A model generated the notes under the pieces. That model was given only the letters and a program-made list of their open reading frames with translations, did no database searches and was not told where the DNA came from. A DNA stretch of 56,674 nt, taken from Flavobacteriales bacterium (GTDB lineage: Bacteria; Bacteroidota; Bacteroidia; UBA10329). The translations under genes and the position numbers were made by a program. Shown here piece by piece: positions 35,819 through 42,382 of the stretch. The stretch is from positions 1 to 56,674 of the forward strand of contig JBDNJH010000176.1 of assembly GCA_041687875.1 (NCBI GenBank). The letters are read 5' to 3'. The number at the start of each line of letters is the position of its first letter. Position 1 is the first letter of the stretch.

Positions 35819-37903
35819 TTGAGCATAATCTTCCAATATTCAACATGGTTTTTGCTGCTGGCCCTTGTGGTCGGGGTAGCCTACGCCCTCGGAATGTATT
35901 TCCGCGAAAAGCGTACAGCCACAATGCCCATTTGGATGCTGCGTGGCTTGGCGGCAGTCCGCGGTATCACCATTTTTATTCTCGTTGTACTGCTGATTGG
36001 TCCGTTGATCAAATCAGTCACCAAGCGCACCGAAAAACCAATTGTAGTTATAGCACAAGACAATTCTTCGAGTATTCCGCTGAACAGCGATAGCGCCTTT
36101 TACCGTACCGAATACTTAGAAGGACTGGCGGCATTGCGCGCTTCTCTTTCGGACGAATACGAAGTGCGGAGCTACGTGTTTGGCAATGCAGTGAACGAAA
36201 CCGAAACACCAGATTTCTCTGATGGCAGAACCGATATGTCAGAACTTTTTGAAGAGTTGGATAATGTCTATGCCAATCGTAATGTGGGCGCGGTAATCCT
36301 TGCTTCGGATGGATTGTACAACCGAGGCCGCGACCCTATTTACAGCCCGCTGCATCTCAATACGCCCATCTATTCCATCGCCTTGGGCGATACAAGTATC
36401 AAGCGAGATGTGATTTTGAAAAAGGTTGACCACAACCGATATGCCTACTTGGGAAATGAATTTCCGGTGGATATAACCATAGAGGCTGAGAAGTTCCAAG
36501 GAAAGGACGTAACCGTTCAGCTTTCGGGCGATAACGGCATACTGTGGGAGCAGCGCGTGAGCATCAACAGCAACTCATTCCGCAAGGTAGTATCAGCCAA
36601 ACTAAAAGCCCAAGTGCCTGGATTGAATCGAATTCGTGCCAGTGTAAGCGTACTAAGCGGAGAACTTTCGCGAAGCAATAACACGCAGGATTTCTTTGTA
36701 GAAGTGCTAGACGGACGGCAGAAGGTGCTCATTCTTGCGGCCAATCCGCACCCAGATATTGCAGCCATCAAACGAAGCATCAGCGGCAACGATAACTACG
36801 AAGTGGATGCGTTTGTATTGGGCGAAAAGGAGTTCAATACCGAGCAGTACGACCTTATTATTCTGCATCAATTACCACAAACAGGAGGGAAGGGAAGACC
36901 CGACATGGATAAAATCCGTGCTTCAACCGTTCCTGTGTTCTGTATTGTGGGTGGCAAGACCGACCTACGCTGGTTCAACGATATGAACTTCGGATTGCAG
37001 ATAAACGCAGCAAGACAAAGCAAGAACGAAGTGCTTCCTGTTTTTGCCAAAGGTTTTTCGCTTTTCACCTTAGACGAGAATGTGCGAAGAATGCTGCAAC
37101 GCTATCCGCCACTCAACGCACCTTTTGGGGAATACGCAGCAAGCGGTTCGGCTCAAACGCTCTTCAATCAACGCATCGGAAACGTGGAAACACAGAATCC
37201 GCTTCTGCTTTTCAATGATGTATCTGGAAGAAAGACAGCTGTGTTGGTTGGCGATGGTATTTGGCGATGGCGAATAAGAGACTTTGAGGAGAATGGTTCT
37301 CACGAGATATTTGATGGAATGCTCTCAAAAGTGGTGCAATTCCTTGCGCTCAAAACCGACAAGAGTCTGTTCCGAGTAAATACAAAAAACCGTTATTCAG
37401 AAGATGAGGTGGTTGTATTCAACGCAGAACTCTACAACGAAACCTACGAGCCCATCAACGAGCCAGAAGTCGATTTGACCATAACCGATGAGCAAGGGAA
37501 GGTGTACGAGTACAAATTCAACCGAACAGACAACGCCTATCGATTGAATGCTGGAAGCTTCAAAGAAGGAAACTACCGTTACAAGGCGCAGGTAAGCAAT
37601 GGCGGAAAGGTGCTCGAAAGTTCAGGCCAGTTCATGGTAGCCGCTCTCAAACTAGAAACCACCCGCACCACTGCCGACCACGCTTTGATGTATAAGATTG
37701 CCAACGGTTCAGGCGGTTCGCTTTTCTTCCCACGCGAGTTAGACAAGCTGGCAGAGGCCATTAAAGCACGAGACGACATCCGCAACGTGGTGTACGAACA
37801 AACGTTGTTCAAAGAAGCCATTCATTTGAAGTGGATATTCTTTCTCATCCTTGCCTTGCTCAGTCTTGAGTGGTTTGTGAGGAAAAGAAATGGGGCTTAC
37901 TAA
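35819..37903 (+). CDS. membrane protein with N-terminal double-TM (BatA-N-like) region and C-terminal TM anchor
   Basis: 694 aa with a TTG start. TM segments at the N-terminus (WFLLLALVVGVAYALG, ITIFILVVLLIG) and C-terminus (IFFLILALLSLEWF). The central part is not recognised confidently. Confidence 0.65.
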   Translation: MSIIFQYSTWFLLLALVVGVAYALGMYFREKRTATMPIWMLRGLAAVRGITIFILVVLLIGPLIKSVTKRTEKPIVVIAQDNSSSIPLNSDSAFYRTEYLEGLAALRASLSDEYEVRSYVFGNAVNETETPDFSDGRTDMSELFEELDNVYANRNVGAVILASDGLYNRGRDPIYSPLHLNTPIYSIALGDTSIKRDVILKKVDHNRYAYLGNEFPVDITIEAEKFQGKDVTVQLSGDNGILWEQRVSINSNSFRKVVSAKLKAQVPGLNRIRASVSVLSGELSRSNNTQDFFVEVLDGRQKVLILAANPHPDIAAIKRSISGNDNYEVDAFVLGEKEFNTEQYDLIILHQLPQTGGKGRPDMDKIRASTVPVFCIVGGKTDLRWFNDMNFGLQINAARQSKNEVLPVFAKGFSLFTLDENVRRMLQRYPPLNAPFGEYAASGSAQTLFNQRIGNVETQNPLLLFNDVSGRKTAVLVGDGIWRWRIRDFEENGSHEIFDGMLSKVVQFLALKTDKSLFRVNTKNRYSEDEVVVFNAELYNETYEPINEPEVDLTITDEQGKVYEYKFNRTDNAYRLNAGSFKEGNYRYKAQVSNGGKVLESSGQFMVAALKLETTRTTADHALMYKIANGSGGSLFFPRELDKLAEAIKARDDIRNVVYEQTLFKEAIHLKWIFFLILALLSLEWFVRKRNGAY

Positions 37904-37956
37904 TTAGCGAATTGGATAATTAGCGAATATGCTAATGGAAATCCGTGTTAATCAGT

Positions 37957-38289
37957 TCAATCTGTTTTCTGTCTCACCTCAATAGGTCCAAATTTCAGTG
38001 GTTGCTCCAATACGTTTAGAACCTGTGAGGAAAGATGATGTAATGTCAGATAAGAGTTGTCTTCGGCATTAAACACAATGACGCAGATTGGATACTTCTC
38101 AAAGTTCTGCTGAAACTGCAGGTTCTTGTCAAAAGTAAGGAGTACTTCAAAATTCTTACTCAACATCAGTTCCAGGAGTTCTCCATTCTTCTTGCTGTTC
38201 CACCCCATGTCACGAACCGTGTATACCTCATGGGCCGAAAGGTCGGTTTTGAGCTTTTTCGGAAGATTCTCGTCAAGCAACAGCTTCAT
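37957..38289 (-). CDS. DUF5615-type PIN-like toxin candidate
   Basis: 110 aa. MKLLLDENLPKKL...TFDKNL pattern typical of DUF5615 partners of DUF433 proteins. Confidence 0.7.
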   Translation of the reverse strand: MKLLLDENLPKKLKTDLSAHEVYTVRDMGWNSKKNGELLELMLSKNFEVLLTFDKNLQFQQNFEKYPICVIVFNAEDNSYLTLHHLSSQVLNVLEQPLKFGPIEVRQKTD

Positions 38290-38515
38290 AGAACTTGCCT
38301 ATCTGGTCTGAACCAATGAGTTTATTGGCAATTTCCAACACGCCATTTACCTGTTTGCGCGTAACGCTGGGGAAATCATCCAAGAAATCATCAATACTGA
38401 TTCCCTTCTCCAAATGCCAAAAAAGACTCTGAACAGGAACGCGGGTGCCGCTAAAGACCGGCTGGCCACCTTGAATTTCCTTATCGATGGTAATATGGTC
38501 GCTTAATAGGCTCAT
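38273..38515 (-). CDS. DUF433-type antitoxin candidate
   Basis: ATG at 38515 gives MSLLSDHITIDKEIQGGQPVFSGTRVPVQSLF.... The longer track ORF to 38587 runs into a relic of the M23 gene. Overlaps the downstream toxin by 17 nt. Confidence 0.7.
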   Translation of the reverse strand: MSLLSDHITIDKEIQGGQPVFSGTRVPVQSLFWHLEKGISIDDFLDDFPSVTRKQVNGVLEIANKLIGSDQIGKFYEAVA

Positions 38516-38520
38516 TACCT

Positions 38521-38528
38521 CAAAGATA
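38521..38528 (-). promoter_or_regulatory. candidate -7 box (TATCTTTG on the minus strand) in the conserved spacer upstream of the DUF433 gene
   Basis: Same box and same spacer as at 40643..40650. Confidence 0.4.
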
Positions 38529-38550
38529 AGCTTTAGGTTCTCGAAATAAG

Positions 38551-38621
38551 TTACTGAACGGTTATATTCAATTCCCTCACATTTCATACCGCATCTGTAG
38601 CTGAAATACGGAAAGTGTTCT
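38551..38621 (-). repeat. relic R1 of the 3' end of the M23 peptidase gene (true copy at 40673..40766)
   Basis: The minus strand reads TFRISATDAV*NVRELNITVQ*, against FRISATDAVGNVRELNITVQ* in the intact gene. By hand, most positions match over about 70 nt. Confidence 0.75.
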
Positions 38622-38730
38622 ACGAAAAACCAACATTAAAGAAGCTATTCATTTGAATTGGATCTTCTTTCTCATCTTTGCCTTGCTCAGTCTTGAGTGG
38701 TTTGTGAGGAAAAGAAATGGGGCTTATTGA
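38615..38730 (+). repeat. relic of the 3' end of the 694-aa gene (true copy at 37787..37903)
   Basis: The last 93 nt (38638..38730 against 37811..37903) differ at 6 positions by hand alignment. A 1-nt indel lies upstream. A stop codon is retained (TGA instead of TAA). Confidence 0.85.
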
Positions 38731-38734
38731 TTTG

Positions 38735-39412
38735 ATGATGGACGGATTATCCAAGATTCGAATTTTAGCAATTGTGTTTCTGTTCTCGGTTTATGCAACC
38801 GCGCAAGAAACCAAACTGACCGATTCTAAAACCTTTAAGTTCCAGAACGGAGACTTGCTTTTTCAAGACTTGGATTGTGGAGGTTTATGCACAGCTATTG
38901 AAACCGTAACAGAAGGGGTTGACGGAAAGTCGTTTTCGCACTTAGGTCTGGTTCATATTTATAATGATTCCGTAGTCGTTATTGAAGCCATCGGAGAGGG
39001 CGTTCAAGTAACACCTATTCAGGTATTTGTTAATCGCAACTTAGATGCAGCAGGAAACCCTAAAGTAATTGTGACTCGATTGGTTGATGACAATTTATCT
39101 CTGAAAAAGAAGGCACTGGATTTTGCGGTAGCTCAACTTGGAATGCCGTACGATGATGCTTTTCTCTACAATAACGGAAGCTACTATTGCAGCGAGCTGA
39201 TTTACGATGCATTCAAATTCGCCAATGACGACCGGCCGTTTTTTGAGCTCCGTCCAATGACTTTCAAAGATCCTGCAACCAACGAGATGTTTCCAGTTTG
39301 GGTGGAATATTACGAGAACTTAAAAATGCCTATTCCCGAAGGAGAGTTGGGCTGTAACCCCGGTGGGATTTCTAGAAGTGAGAAGCTACACGTGGTGGCT
39401 TCGTTCTATTGA
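38735..39412 (+). CDS. YiiX/YaeF-like permuted papain-fold (NlpC/P60 superfamily) hydrolase, secreted
   Basis: ATG at 38735 gives a signal peptide (ILAIVFLFSVYATAQ). SHLGLV and YYCSELIYDAF motifs fit the family. The track start at 38717 lies inside the relic repeat. Confidence 0.7.
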   Translation: MMDGLSKIRILAIVFLFSVYATAQETKLTDSKTFKFQNGDLLFQDLDCGGLCTAIETVTEGVDGKSFSHLGLVHIYNDSVVVIEAIGEGVQVTPIQVFVNRNLDAAGNPKVIVTRLVDDNLSLKKKALDFAVAQLGMPYDDAFLYNNGSYYCSELIYDAFKFANDDRPFFELRPMTFKDPATNEMFPVWVEYYENLKMPIPEGELGCNPGGISRSEKLHVVASFY

Positions 39413-39483
39413 ACCATCACAACCAATTTCTGCACATTCTCAACTTTGTGTTTTGTCTGTATCTTCGTTCAAAGCTTAGAATA

Positions 39484-39723
39484 ATGAAAACGCGAGAAGA
39501 GTTTCACAAATTGATTGATACGATTGAAGACGATGAAGTGCTACAGGCGTACTATCAACTTATCAGCGGACTCAACGCAGGAAAGAACGGGCAAGTGTGG
39601 AATTCGCTGTCTGAAGAAGAGCAAGAAGAGGTTTTAGCCTCTTATGAAGAAAGCTTGGATAAGCATAACCTGATAGATCACAGCTTGGTAGCAGAAGAGC
39701 ACGCTAAATGGTTGAAAAAGTAA
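39484..39723 (+). CDS. antitoxin partner of the ParE/RelE-family toxin
   Basis: 79 aa from the ATG at 39484 (MKTREEFHKLIDTIEDD...). Its stop overlaps the toxin start (ATGGTTGAAAAAGTAA). Confidence 0.6.
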   Translation: MKTREEFHKLIDTIEDDEVLQAYYQLISGLNAGKNGQVWNSLSEEEQEEVLASYEESLDKHNLIDHSLVAEEHAKWLKK

Positions 39724-40004
39724 TCTGGACACCACGGGCTACCGCAAAGTTAAGAGCGATTATTCGGTATCTAGAATTGAATTGGAACGAGAAGGTAACT
39801 CGTGAGTTTGCCCAGAAAACATTCGCGTCAATTCAGTTGATTTCAGATCAGCCAACAATGGGCGAATTAGTTGATGAGAAGAAACAAATTCGTGGTTTTC
39901 GAATTACCAAACACAATCGGCTTTTCTATACTGTTGCAGACAAAGAGCTGATTGTCCTCAACATGTTTGATAATAGACAAAGTCCCAAAAACAAACGATA
40001 CTGA
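39708..40004 (+). CDS. ParE/RelE family type II toxin
   Basis: 98 aa. MVEKVIWTPRATAKLRAIIRYL...LIVLNMFDNRQSP fits the ParE-like pattern. Confidence 0.7.
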   Translation: MVEKVIWTPRATAKLRAIIRYLELNWNEKVTREFAQKTFASIQLISDQPTMGELVDEKKQIRGFRITKHNRLFYTVADKELIVLNMFDNRQSPKNKRY

Positions 40005-40007
40005 GAT

Positions 40008-40101
40008 TTATTGAACCGTTATGTTCAACTCCCTCACGTTACCCACAGCATCGGTAGCTGAAATACGAAACGTGTTTTGTCCGCTGATGAAATGCTTGCT
40101 C
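40008..40101 (-). repeat. relic R2 of the 3' end of the M23 peptidase gene
   Basis: A 52-nt core (ctcacgttacccacagcatcggtagctgaaatacgaaacgtgttttgtcc) is identical to 40697..40748. The minus strand reads SKHFISGQNTFRISATDAVGNVRELNITVQ*. Confidence 0.85.
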
Positions 40102-40408
40102 AAAACATCTTTCTCAGTCGAGAAGGGTCTTGGCGACAATCGAAAATATCTGCCACTCTTATCTGTTCCAATTCTTCATTGACCGTATAAAGGATTTTGA
40201 AGTCGCCCTCAACTACATACCTATATTCGAGTTTTCGATTCTCCAGCAACGGTTCTCGTTGCCCAGAATAAGGCGTGTTCTGTAAATGAATAGTTGAGAT
40301 GAGGAGTTTACGCGCTAACTCAAATGCTGCGGTTTCTGAGAAGTGCTCTGTGTAAAAATCAACAATGTCCGATAAACGATGTTCAGCAGATCGTGACCAG
40401 ATTACTTC
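40100..40408 (-). pseudogene. ParE/RelE-family toxin ORF with no canonical start codon
   Basis: Hand translation gives EVIWSRSAEHRLSDIVDFYTEHF...FKILYTVNEELEQIRVADIFDCRQDPSRLRKMF*. The frame is open from 40435. No ATG, GTG or TTG occurs before codon ~58 of the frame that opens at 40435. It is missing from the ORF track for that reason. Confidence 0.55.
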
Positions 40409-40638
40409 AAAATTCGTCTGTACTTCGCAAGAAGATCAGTTGCGGAAACGAACTCACCAGCTTCAAATTCTTTTTCAGAACAATCAAGTCGCTTGTGAAG
40501 TTCCTCTAATGTAATCGGTTTAAACTCAATATTCATTCTCACATTTCGCAACAAGTCCTCCACTTTTTGAAGCAGACTTTCATCTTCCAGTTGGAGGACT
40601 GATTGGGCTAAGTGAATTTTGCGTTGATCAAGTGTCAT
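40402..40638 (-). CDS. antitoxin candidate upstream of the start-less ParE-like ORF
   Basis: 78 aa. Its stop overlaps the toxin-like frame exactly as in the 39484/39708 pair. Confidence 0.55.
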   Translation of the reverse strand: MTLDQRKIHLAQSVLQLEDESLLQKVEDLLRNVRMNIEFKPITLEELHKRLDCSEKEFEAGEFVSATDLLAKYRRILK

Positions 40639-40642
40639 GTAT

Positions 40643-40650
40643 CAAAGATA
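40643..40650 (-). promoter_or_regulatory. candidate -7 box (TATCTTTG on the minus strand) in the conserved spacer
   Basis: Lies in the 34-nt spacer between the M23 stop and the antitoxin ATG. The same sequence occurs at 38521..38528. Confidence 0.4.
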
Positions 40651-40672
40651 AGTTTTTGGTTCTCGAAATAAG

Positions 40673-42382
40673 TTACTGAACGGTAATATTCAGTTCTCTC
40701 ACGTTACCCACAGCATCGGTAGCTGAAATACGAAACGTGTTTTGTCCAGTAATGAAACGCTCGTCTTTGGTGTAATAAAGCAAGCTGTTCTTCGGGTCTT
40801 GTTGCAGAAGTACCCATTTCCCGTTGAGGGTTGCGGTCACGGTCTTTACACCCGCAAGGTTGTCGGATAGCGTGAATTCCAGACGTGCAAGACCAGCAGT
40901 GGAGGTTTGATCTTTGAAATTCTTCGGTGTGACACGAGGAGCGATACTGTCCAGCATCACGGCATAGTCGCCAAAGCTGCGGCTCTTGGTGGTCATCCAA
41001 TTCCATTTAGCAGAACCACCTTCGCTAATCGGATTTCCATTCTTATTGAAGGAAACCATCAAAGCTTTCGAGGTTTTGGTTTCCGAGAGTTTGTTCATCT
41101 CGATGGAAACCGTCATGTAACTGTCTAAAGGAGTATCGAGAATCTTGCCAATGGAATGAACGGGTGACACACAGCCTTTGCAAGCTGGTTTGAGGTCGTA
41201 TTTGAATTTGAGCGTATCGTAGAGACAGCCGTTGGGAATGTTGAGACGAAGTGAATTGTTGGTGAATGCGTTTTCCTGAAGTGGGTAGAAGAGGTCGGTG
41301 ATGTCTTCTTTAGGTGCTAAAACCGAGGCCGAATGTTCGTGTCCGAGGATAGAGAAATTCAAGGTTGATTTGTTTCCTGCGTAATCCAATACCTCGATGG
41401 AGATTTCGTAGGTCTTTCCTTTTTCAATCTGTACGGTTCCTTGGTCTTTGACTGTTGGATACATGCTTAACTTGTTTCCGGGAGCTATGTAAGAGCGATA
41501 AACCTTCAAGTTGTCAATCTTGTTCTTCTGATAGTCGGTGTGGCAATTGACCATGCGTTTCTGGTCGAAGGAAACTTTATCCAATCTCTGCTCGTGGATG
41601 ATGACTCCATTCACCTTAACCTTCATACCATAAATACCACAAGGGTTGGTGGCATTGCTGAAACGGTCTAGTGCCGCAATTCCAAAACTGAGAATGCCCG
41701 AAGCTTTGATGGGAGCAGCTGCGGTGAGGGTGTAATTACCAGTTGTACCTTGAATAGCAAAACCTTTATCGTGGATGAGTCCTTCTACATGGCCGCTTAT
41801 AGCATGGTTGTAAACGAAGAGTTTTTGAAGTTCGGGTCGCTTATCATCCTTCACTTTGAAACCGTAGTTGAGCGGATTTTCGGGATGTTGCCCGATGGTT
41901 TCGCGAATCTCGAAGTGGAGGTGCGGTCCGCCCGAACCACCTGAATTGCCGCTTTTGGCTATCAGTTGTCCTTTCTTGATAGGAAATTTGGAGGAAGTGA
42001 AAGCCAAGTCAACTTCGAAAGATTCTTTGGCGTATTGCTGTTCTTTTACATACGCAGCAATTTCTGGTGCAAATTCGCGCAGATGACCGTAAACCGTGGT
42101 CTTTCCGTTTGGATGTTCGAGGTAAACGGCCTTGCCGAAACCGCCACCAGCCACGGTGAGTCGTGACACGAAACCGTCAGCCACAGCATAAATTGGTTTG
42201 CCTTCCACGCCTCCAGTTTTGATATCCAATCCCGAATGGAAATGATTGGTGCGCACCTCACCGAAGTTGCCCGAAAGGATGAGTTCGCCATCCATAGGGT
42301 TTCGGTATTCGGTTTCTTGCGCGAGCGAGGGAAAAATGGATGAAAGAAAAAGGAAAAAAGTGATGCTTCGCATGAAGTTCAA
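40673..42382 (-). CDS. M23 family metallopeptidase, large secreted form
   Basis: 569 aa. Signal peptide. HFHSGLDIKTGGVEGKPIYA and GGSGGPHLHFEI motifs. Confidence 0.9.
   Translation of the reverse strand: MNFMRSITFFLFLSSIFPSLAQETEYRNPMDGELILSGNFGEVRTNHFHSGLDIKTGGVEGKPIYAVADGFVSRLTVAGGGFGKAVYLEHPNGKTTVYGHLREFAPEIAAYVKEQQYAKESFEVDLAFTSSKFPIKKGQLIAKSGNSGGSGGPHLHFEIRETIGQHPENPLNYGFKVKDDKRPELQKLFVYNHAISGHVEGLIHDKGFAIQGTTGNYTLTAAAPIKASGILSFGIAALDRFSNATNPCGIYGMKVKVNGVIIHEQRLDKVSFDQKRMVNCHTDYQKNKIDNLKVYRSYIAPGNKLSMYPTVKDQGTVQIEKGKTYEISIEVLDYAGNKSTLNFSILGHEHSASVLAPKEDITDLFYPLQENAFTNNSLRLNIPNGCLYDTLKFKYDLKPACKGCVSPVHSIGKILDTPLDSYMTVSIEMNKLSETKTSKALMVSFNKNGNPISEGGSAKWNWMTTKSRSFGDYAVMLDSIAPRVTPKNFKDQTSTAGLARLEFTLSDNLAGVKTVTATLNGKWVLLQQDPKNSLLYYTKDERFITGQNTFRISATDAVGNVRELNITVQ

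Follow-up and report, generated by a model that had tools for sequence, protein, structure and literature searches.

Two unrelated toxin-antitoxin cassettes of an uncultured Flavobacteriales bacterium start behind nearly the same short spacer, and the locus raises the question of how one promoter-like sequence came to precede different cargos. The window, i.e., the whole stretch of DNA analyzed, is the 56,674-nt contig JBDNJH010000176.1 (labeled C200) of a metagenome-assembled genome (MAG; GCA_041687875.1) of 2.9 Mb in 308 contigs. In a preliminary description of this DNA, a conserved gene end followed by a promoter and by cargo starting at a fixed point was likened to a cassette-exchange site. 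The explanation that we regard as likely has three parts: a minimal leaderless promoter, alleles of a variable intergenic gap stacked by recombination, and replacement of the cargo behind the spacer.

Organization of the locus

The locus lies between two convergent core genes, the M23 peptidase gene (assigned by Pfam; 40673–42382, minus strand) and the gene of a conserved hypothetical protein of 694 aa (35819–37903, plus strand). Behind M23 on the minus strand follow spacer copy 2 (40639–40672), a 78-aa antitoxin (40402–40638), a ParE-family toxin frame, ParE(-) (40100–40435), and the gene relic R2 (40008–40096). The other strand carries a second, convergent antitoxin/ParE pair (79 and 98 aa; 39484–40004), of which the toxin, ParE(+), is met before its antitoxin, and a Peptidase_C92 (YiiX-like) gene (assigned by Pfam; 38735–39412). 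The relic 694B (38617–38730, plus strand) is joined to the relic R1 (38551–38619, minus strand). Beyond R1, again on the minus strand, are spacer copy 1 (38516–38550), a DUF433 antitoxin gene of 80 aa (38273–38515) and a DUF5615/PIN-like (PIN_10) toxin gene of 110 aa (37957–38289), and on the other strand the live 694-aa gene.

The two cargos were described earlier as members of different families, and Pfam agrees: one comprises DUF433 (E-value 1.2e-17) with DUF5615/PIN-like, the other a ParE-family frame (ParE_toxin, E-value 2.3e-7) beside an antitoxin without Pfam family. As adjacent small genes with family matches (DUF433, DUF5615/PIN_10, ParE_toxin), they are predicted to be type II toxin-antitoxin pairs. 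The 78-aa antitoxin has only one cluster of homologues besides its own; its only homologue is the 74-aa antitoxin of L058, an assembly from outside this genome, with 74% identity.

The ParE(-) toxin is probably inactive, judging by its reading frame. Inactivation took place independently in two strains. The frame starts with ACG in the window and in L051, an assembly from another sample, while in the metagenome contig L050 the ATG is retained and the toxin frame carries a 1-nt indel. A single T-to-C change shared by the window and L051 converted the ATG of ParE(-) to ACG and the TGA stop of the antitoxin to CGA, by which the antitoxin was extended by four codons. The ParE homologue of L058 starts with ATG and is intact.

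The public gene call for DUF433 is 104 aa long (38273–38587, minus strand), with a start ATG inside R1 and a reading frame across the spacer. It is an over-extension, an artefact of the relic, because most listed homologues have 80 aa and start as at 38515. An exact look-up of the 80-aa protein gave no record, since gene callers use the 104-aa form. Gene callers thus carry the first gene of a cassette too far upstream, across spacers of this type.

Extent of the repeated spacer

The pattern TCAAAGATAAGYTTTWGGTTCTCGAAATAAG matches the plus strand at 38520–38550 and 40642–40672, and it was found in none of 100 shuffles of the window. The copies differ at two positions, which bears out the earlier count of 2 mismatches in 31 nt. 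Exactly two copies of this 31-nt spacer are present in the whole genome (308 contigs, up to six substitutions permitted). The spacer is the end portion of a 100-nt repeat (38520–38619 vs. 40642–40741, 87% identical) that also takes in the last 69 nt, i.e., the last 23 codons, of the M23 peptidase gene. Rfam gave no credible match within 37700–40900.

Copy 2 makes up all of the 34 nt that separate the stop of M23 from the ATG at which the 78-aa antitoxin starts. On the coding strand it reads TAA-CTTATTTCGAGAACCAAAAACT-TATCTTTG-ATAC-ATG, with the -7 box TATCTTTG at 40643–40650. Copy 1 (35 nt) extends from R1 to the ATG of DUF433, has the same box at 38521–38528 and ends in AGGTA. On the minus strand, 4 nt in copy 2 and 5 nt in copy 1 thus separate the end of the box from the ATG, the distances that had been reported for it.

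The spacers differ at 2 of 31 positions and R1 differs at 11 of 69, so that the spacer is not significantly better conserved (Fisher p = 0.33) and no selection is claimed for it. Gene conversion between the copies, which occurs at the locus, could equally explain their similarity.

The spacer as a probable leaderless promoter

In Bacteroidota promoters, the -7 box occupies -12 to -5 and is separated from the start of transcription by 4 or 5 nt; AT-rich tracts are found near -18 and -28 (PMC6847099; PMC9723704). The -33 element is weak or absent in promoters of F. johnsoniae (PMC6847099). Both spacer copies have the sigma-ABfr box TAnnTTTG (TAHHTTTG) in the form TATCTTTG, and their box-to-ATG distances of 4 and 5 nt match the published distance from box to start. 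Further elements are an A-run near -18, a T-rich stretch near -30 and the M23 stop codon at -37 to -35; in place of a -33 TTTG there is only TTTC, at about -30 to -27.

With these elements, the 34–35-nt gap would suffice as a minimal promoter for the housekeeping sigma factor of Bacteroidota, copy 2 being a candidate minimal sigma-A promoter. Transcription is predicted to start at the A of the ATG behind copy 2, and at the same A or one base upstream behind copy 1, which would give a leaderless toxin-antitoxin mRNA. A sigma-70/terminator scan, otherwise uninformative for this phylum, found no terminator in either spacer, and no co-directional gene is located upstream of copy 1; the DUF433 cassette therefore needs a promoter of its own.

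The genome was used for calibration by counting TAHHTTTG followed by ATG at spacings of 0–15 nt, with an ORF cutoff of at least 60 aa and a reversed box as the control. The combination was counted 64 times for a spacing of 4 nt and 32 times for one of 5 nt, compared to 11–27 times at any other spacing in this range, and the ATGs at 4 and 5 nt open an ORF of at least 60 aa in 81–94% of cases (10–50% for the reversed box). Lowering the cutoff to 50 aa yields 84 candidate leaderless genes (~3% of genes), those behind both spacers included. Window members of this class are, for example, the starts at 40638, 38515, and 8342. Among the candidates shorter than 150 aa, 12 of 28 either lead a toxin-antitoxin pair or encode a recognized antitoxin: HicB, two DUF433/DUF5615 pairs, four antitoxin/ParE pairs, three MNT/HepT pairs, one Unstab_antitox, and one decayed pair. 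The arrangement is also found outside the genome. DUF433 homologues of other Bacteroidota have a perfect box ending 3–5 nt before the ATG in 33 of 76 cases and a 5-of-6 match in 56 of 76, against 0–6 at control offsets, and L058 has a homologous 34-nt spacer with TATCTTTA-N4-ATG. By these counts, toxin-antitoxin operons of this genome and DUF433 genes throughout the phylum normally have a box abutting the ATG, and the design is not special to the spacer.

It is improbable that the spacer lacks promoter function, with the cassettes expressed by read-through from M23 or persisting as silent relics and the box a chance match. The missing terminator between M23 and the antitoxin and the inactivated state of the ParE(-) toxin would be in line with this, but read-through finds no co-directional gene upstream of copy 1, and the box-to-ATG spacing class is strongly non-random in the genome and conserved in the DUF433 homologues and L058. 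The spacer is probably a promoter, and its predicted leaderless character is well supported by sequence. The earlier proposal of a Bacteroidota promoter with a near-leaderless antitoxin mRNA thus gains support from the box, its spacing, the genome-wide enrichment and the DUF433 homologues. For this phylum, Box-N4/5-ATG can usefully guide the placement of start codons and the search for leaderless genes.

The M23/694 gap in related genomes

The M23 and 694-aa genes are convergent neighbors in every genome of the genus that carries both on one contig. The gap between them is empty in G019, G006, and G002. Peptidase_C92, a frequent resident, occupies it in G021, G016, G020, G011, and L140, and the antitoxin/ParE pair that the window has as ParE(+) occupies it in G007 and G015. 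In L141 this pair lies between 694 and C92 (pair and C92, in another order), and in L058 the pair with the 74-aa antitoxin is accompanied by C92. G008 (L032) combines C92 with two small ORFs, a candidate toxin-antitoxin pair that is DUF4926/DUF6883-like by eye. Other cargos are a 247-aa protein co-directional with M23 in G010 (L037), lipoproteins in G001 and G012, and an unknown 172-aa protein in L142. With cargo this variable between lineages, the gap qualifies as a genuine hotspot.

Downstream of the live 694 stop (37904–37940), the window has TTAGCGAATTGGATAATTAGCGAATATGCTAAT, containing the palindrome ATTAGC-N6-GCTAAT. Motifs like it take up the empty gap in G002 and G019. The palindrome may be a shared terminator or a binding site native to the cargo-free allele.

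The spacer has a much narrower distribution. It is absent from 23 of 23 other genomes of the family, and exact-pattern scans for its core gave no match among the 185,579 genomes of a species-genome collection and a single match, L050, among metagenome contigs. In metagenomes and other assemblies (L050, L051–L054, L058), what comes after the spacer, or after a homologue 76% identical to it, is in every case the same antitoxin/ParE pair, and the only different cargo is DUF433/DUF5615 behind R1 in the genome itself. In the preliminary description, which proposed that the cargo is exchangeable, it was stated beforehand that a spacer always followed by the same gene pair would speak against this. 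The search of relatives which it suggested was carried out and recovered, outside this genome, only antitoxin/ParE; for this reason the general exchange-site idea fails.

Neither do other features of the locus point to a conserved exchange site. Contig C200 has no tyrosine recombinase gene (Phage_integrase, PF00589), matches in the genome being confined to C227, C250, and C206, and the repeat folds no better than its shuffles (z -0.66 to -0.87), with no inverted repeat in the block. The cassette-exchange reading holds only loosely, in that the M23/694 gap is a variable recombination hotspot.

Stacked alleles and their relics

By comparison with its relatives, the window species carries three alleles of the gap joined in tandem: M23end-spacer-antitoxin/ParE, M23end(R2)-ParE/antitoxin-C92-694end, and M23end(R1)-spacer-DUF433/DUF5615-694end. 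Each join leaves a 69–131-nt copy of a flanking gene end, and the spacer would occur twice because different versions of the variable gap were stacked by ordinary recombination.

The relics of M23 can be compared to the live 3' end of the gene (40673–40761, minus strand). R1 comprises the last 23 codons of an M23 allele, is 84% identical to the live end and has one in-frame stop. R2 comprises the last 29 codons of another allele, is 87.6% identical and lacks the spacer; it lies directly against the stop of the convergent ParE(+), an arrangement identical to that of the live M23 end in G007 and G015. From the live end, R1 differs by nine synonymous and one non-synonymous codons and R2 by eight and two, which indicates that both diverged as working gene ends in other lineages before their arrival. 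The 694-aa gene has its last ~95–131 nt duplicated (37811–37905, copy A, at the live 3' end, vs. 38638–38732; 93.7% identical). The second copy belongs to 694B, which comprises the last 37 codons and the stop and stands back-to-back with R1, their truncated inner ends being joined and overlapping by at most 3 nt. No relics or internal repeats were seen in the 10 other gap alleles checked, and the alleles of L140, L141, L142, G008, and G010 are clean in this respect.

Strain variants allow one of the joins to be followed. L050, which is 99% identical, has the order M23-spacer-antitoxin/ParE-R2-ParE(+)/antitoxin-C92-694 and is without the 827-nt DUF5615-DUF433-spacer1-R1 unit, and both 694-end copies of the window align to its single copy. 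Since that copy consists of the core of copy A and the downstream sequence of copy B and fits either direction, insertion of the DUF433 unit and its deletion in L050 are indistinguishable. The 36-kb contig L051, an independent assembly, contains the full stack with 31 SNPs in 8237 nt. Between the window and L050, 9 of the 54 differences cluster in 58 nt at the M23 3' end (40703–40760), where the window is identical to R2, suggesting a gene-conversion tract from the relic into the live gene.

The duplication is best read as a recombination scar. Stacking of alleles emerges from the comparison of strains and relatives, and the signature in the sequence is that of insertion with long target duplication. 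The stack could have formed through a combination of one-sided homologous and illegitimate recombination. Alternatively, a small circle could have entered by a single crossover, with 827 nt through the 694 end or, equivalently, with 2122 nt through the block of M23 end plus spacer. The R1/694B join would accordingly be an end junction or the circle junction; the final structure appears to fit both routes equally, and no element-encoded recombinase would be involved.

Other origins of the duplication have less in their favor. A local tandem duplication of the M23 end and spacer in this lineage, followed by decay in place and independent arrival of cassettes, would agree with the location of all copies within 2.2 kb and with the visible gene conversion between them. 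However, the 8–9 synonymous vs. 1–2 non-synonymous codons fit selection in separate lineages rather than neutral decay, the contact between R2 and ParE(+) repeats that of the live M23 end in two other genomes, and the back-to-back R1/694B junction needs an end-joining or circle-junction event, so we consider this origin unlikely. More doubtful still is a dedicated, integron-like exchange site, in which the M23 end and spacer act as an att-like sequence where a trans-acting site-specific recombinase swaps promoterless or leaderless cassettes at a fixed point. The homology of the two copies does stop 3–4 nt before the ATG, with unrelated cargos beyond, the stop codon of the ParE(-) cassette lies within ~2 nt of the boundary with R2, and on contig C157 a ~100-nt repeat recurs in front of each of five unrelated toxin-antitoxin pairs. 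Against it are the distribution of the spacer and the constancy of its cargo elsewhere, the lack of an integrase on the contig and of an inverted repeat (folding z -0.7 to -0.9), the divergence of the repeats by 13–17%, mostly at synonymous sites and with no exclusive identical core, and the relic of the opposite flank (694B), which an exchange site leaves unexplained. An assembly chimera that concatenates strain variants of the locus might be suspected in a 308-contig MAG, and such variants exist (L050), but R1/694B is a novel non-homologous join, which graph mis-joins at shared k-mers would not make, and L051 from another sample is collinear across the whole stack. We give a chimera practically no credence and, because L051 carries the full stack, regard it as excluded.

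Recombinational stacking of gap alleles is the origin that we retain. Each cassette would be a self-contained unit of ~600–800 nt with a 35-nt promoter, no leader and two genes. Such units would be shifted between hotspot alleles by host recombination, and the gene-end scars would record their donors.

Proposed replacement of cargo behind the spacer

The stacking of alleles leaves the two cargos to be explained. The spacer would be native to the antitoxin/ParE cassette behind M23, as in L058, and in an unsampled lineage this cargo would have been replaced by DUF433/DUF5615. Since the spacer travels with antitoxin/ParE in two species, the DUF433 pair most likely replaced antitoxin/ParE once. 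Either description of the stacking requires a parental allele M23-spacer-DUF433-DUF5615-694, and this donor did not turn up in the collections searched, where the best DUF433 homologue reaches no more than 75% identity and has an unrelated context.

The part of copy 1 upstream of the box is like copy 2 and L058 and unlike the DUF433 homologues, and the part downstream of TTTGA is like those homologues, in which TTTGAG is common. This switch places the junction within the 11-nt CTTATCTTTGA. It is a plausible short-homology crossover point because each of the two cassette families has CTTATCTTTGA for a -7 box of its own. Most toxin-antitoxin cassettes of these bacteria start with nearly the same 11–13 nt, (C)TTATCTTTGAT...ATG. 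A bolder proposal, for which we see a slim chance, is that the -7 box abutting a leaderless ATG is itself the exchange point, short-homology recombination inside the box swapping cassettes while keeping a working promoter. If true, every such promoter would be a recombinase-free docking site, and the same logic could underlie the five-cassette array on C157.

Similar cassettes elsewhere in the genome

Other addiction or defense cassettes of the genome bear the same scar, being flanked by 47–144-nt direct repeats of a neighboring gene end or intergenic element. For example, an MNT/HepT pair (C103:5272–6168) lies between 59-nt repeats of 100% identity, the first 59 nt of ispF being duplicated around the pair, and an antitoxin/ParE pair (C128:18404–19026) lies between 47-nt repeats, also 100% identical. 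A MazF pair (C58:7954–8754; 61 nt) has a layout like that of the window, i.e., gene end, MazEF, relic and a convergent ParE pair. Longer repeats flank three small ORFs (C260:17087–18516; 144 nt), a DUF4926/DUF6883 pair (C99:12451–13649; 121 nt) and an AAA ATPase pair (C190:794–2801; 91 nt).

On C157 (300–4400; L143), five unrelated co-directional toxin-antitoxin pairs are found upstream of guaA: DUF4160/DUF2442, DUF433/DUF5615, two antitoxin/ParE and antitoxin/MazF. Each follows a ~100-nt repeat made of the hairpin CAGCCGYCAAC-N8-GTTGRCGGCTG, a T-run and a -7 box. C157 is a stronger case than the window of one promoter-bearing spacer before unrelated cassettes. An integron-like reading of its repeat was rejected, the hairpin core being a REP-like palindrome present at ~15 sites, with no Rfam match and no integrase on the contig. 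This perfect palindrome, GTCGTCAACTTTTNAAAAGTTGACGAC, is scattered in intergenic DNA (e.g., C70:1112, C80:3937, C99:12526 and 13604, C111:10427, C140:24697, C270:3250, and C280:2028). Candidate ORFs of REP-associated (Y1/IS200-type) transposases were recognized by eye at C199:527–1012 and, frameshifted, at C253:2546–3051, each between direct repeats.

Comparison with known systems

The predicted promoter resembles sigma-ABfr promoters and their leaderless mRNAs in the sequence of the box, the 4–5 nt from box to predicted start and the AT-rich tracts near -18 and -28. Leaderless mRNAs make up ~4–13% of transcripts in the Bacteroidota species studied (PMC6847099, PMC7366714, PMC9723704), with ~4–5% in B. 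thetaiotaomicron and F. psychrophilum. In contrast to the leaderless class of these species, the small members are here dominated by toxin-antitoxin operons, and the starts are predicted ones. Preferential expression of toxin-antitoxin operons as leaderless mRNAs is described for Mycobacterium tuberculosis (PMC3898074; PMC8485053). That bacterium belongs to another phylum and uses another promoter type, whereas the transcripts considered here are deduced from sequence.

Integron attC/cassette arrays likewise hold unrelated small cassettes, often toxin-antitoxin, behind a repeated boundary sequence. At this locus, however, there is no integrase and no attC-like folded inverted repeat, a folding that was rejected by the shuffles, the cassettes have a promoter of their own, and the repeats are relics of gene ends. 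Closer are the minimal mobile elements of Neisseria (Saunders and Snyder, 2002; cited in PMC1797815), which, in the outline given by the citing paper, have two conserved flanks, alternative small cassettes at a syntenic site and no mobility genes. The genomes of the genus and the metagenome contigs have the same conserved flanks with alternative syntenic cassettes. Exchange is presumed in Neisseria to proceed by homologous recombination in the flanks (PMC1797815), and a like exchange, by transformation and such recombination, may apply here, where the clean alleles have no relics. In addition to what is outlined for those elements, the window lineage shows outcomes that are untidy and stacked and that include relics.

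Restriction-modification units provided the original description of insertion with long target duplication (Nobusato et al., 2000; Furuta, Abe and Kobayashi, 2010, PMC2853133). This kind of insertion shares with the locus a small selfish unit without mobility gene and long direct repeats (>30 bp), each of which aligns to the one copy in an empty-site strain; the repeats often overlap the 3' end of a gene. Here, the 95–131-nt pair of 694 ends flanks an 827-nt unit and the 89-nt pair of M23 ends flanks a 665-nt unit. L050 provides the empty site of the DUF433 unit, and for antitoxin/ParE(-) there is a species-level analogue only, the M23 gene abutting ParE(+) in G007 and G015. Pfam searches of all genes revealed no mobility gene in or beside the inserts, and no Phage_integrase on C200. 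The locus differs in its cargo, which is toxin-antitoxin pairs and not restriction-modification genes, and in its host, an uncultured Flavobacteriales-type Bacteroidota. Several events are stacked, leaving relics of both flanking genes and a promoter carried along.

The locus overturns no current ideas. It illustrates the spread of small addiction modules in uncultured Bacteroidota without the machinery of mobile elements, and in its sequence features it matches known kinds, combining insertion with long target duplication and a hotspot like those of minimal mobile elements.
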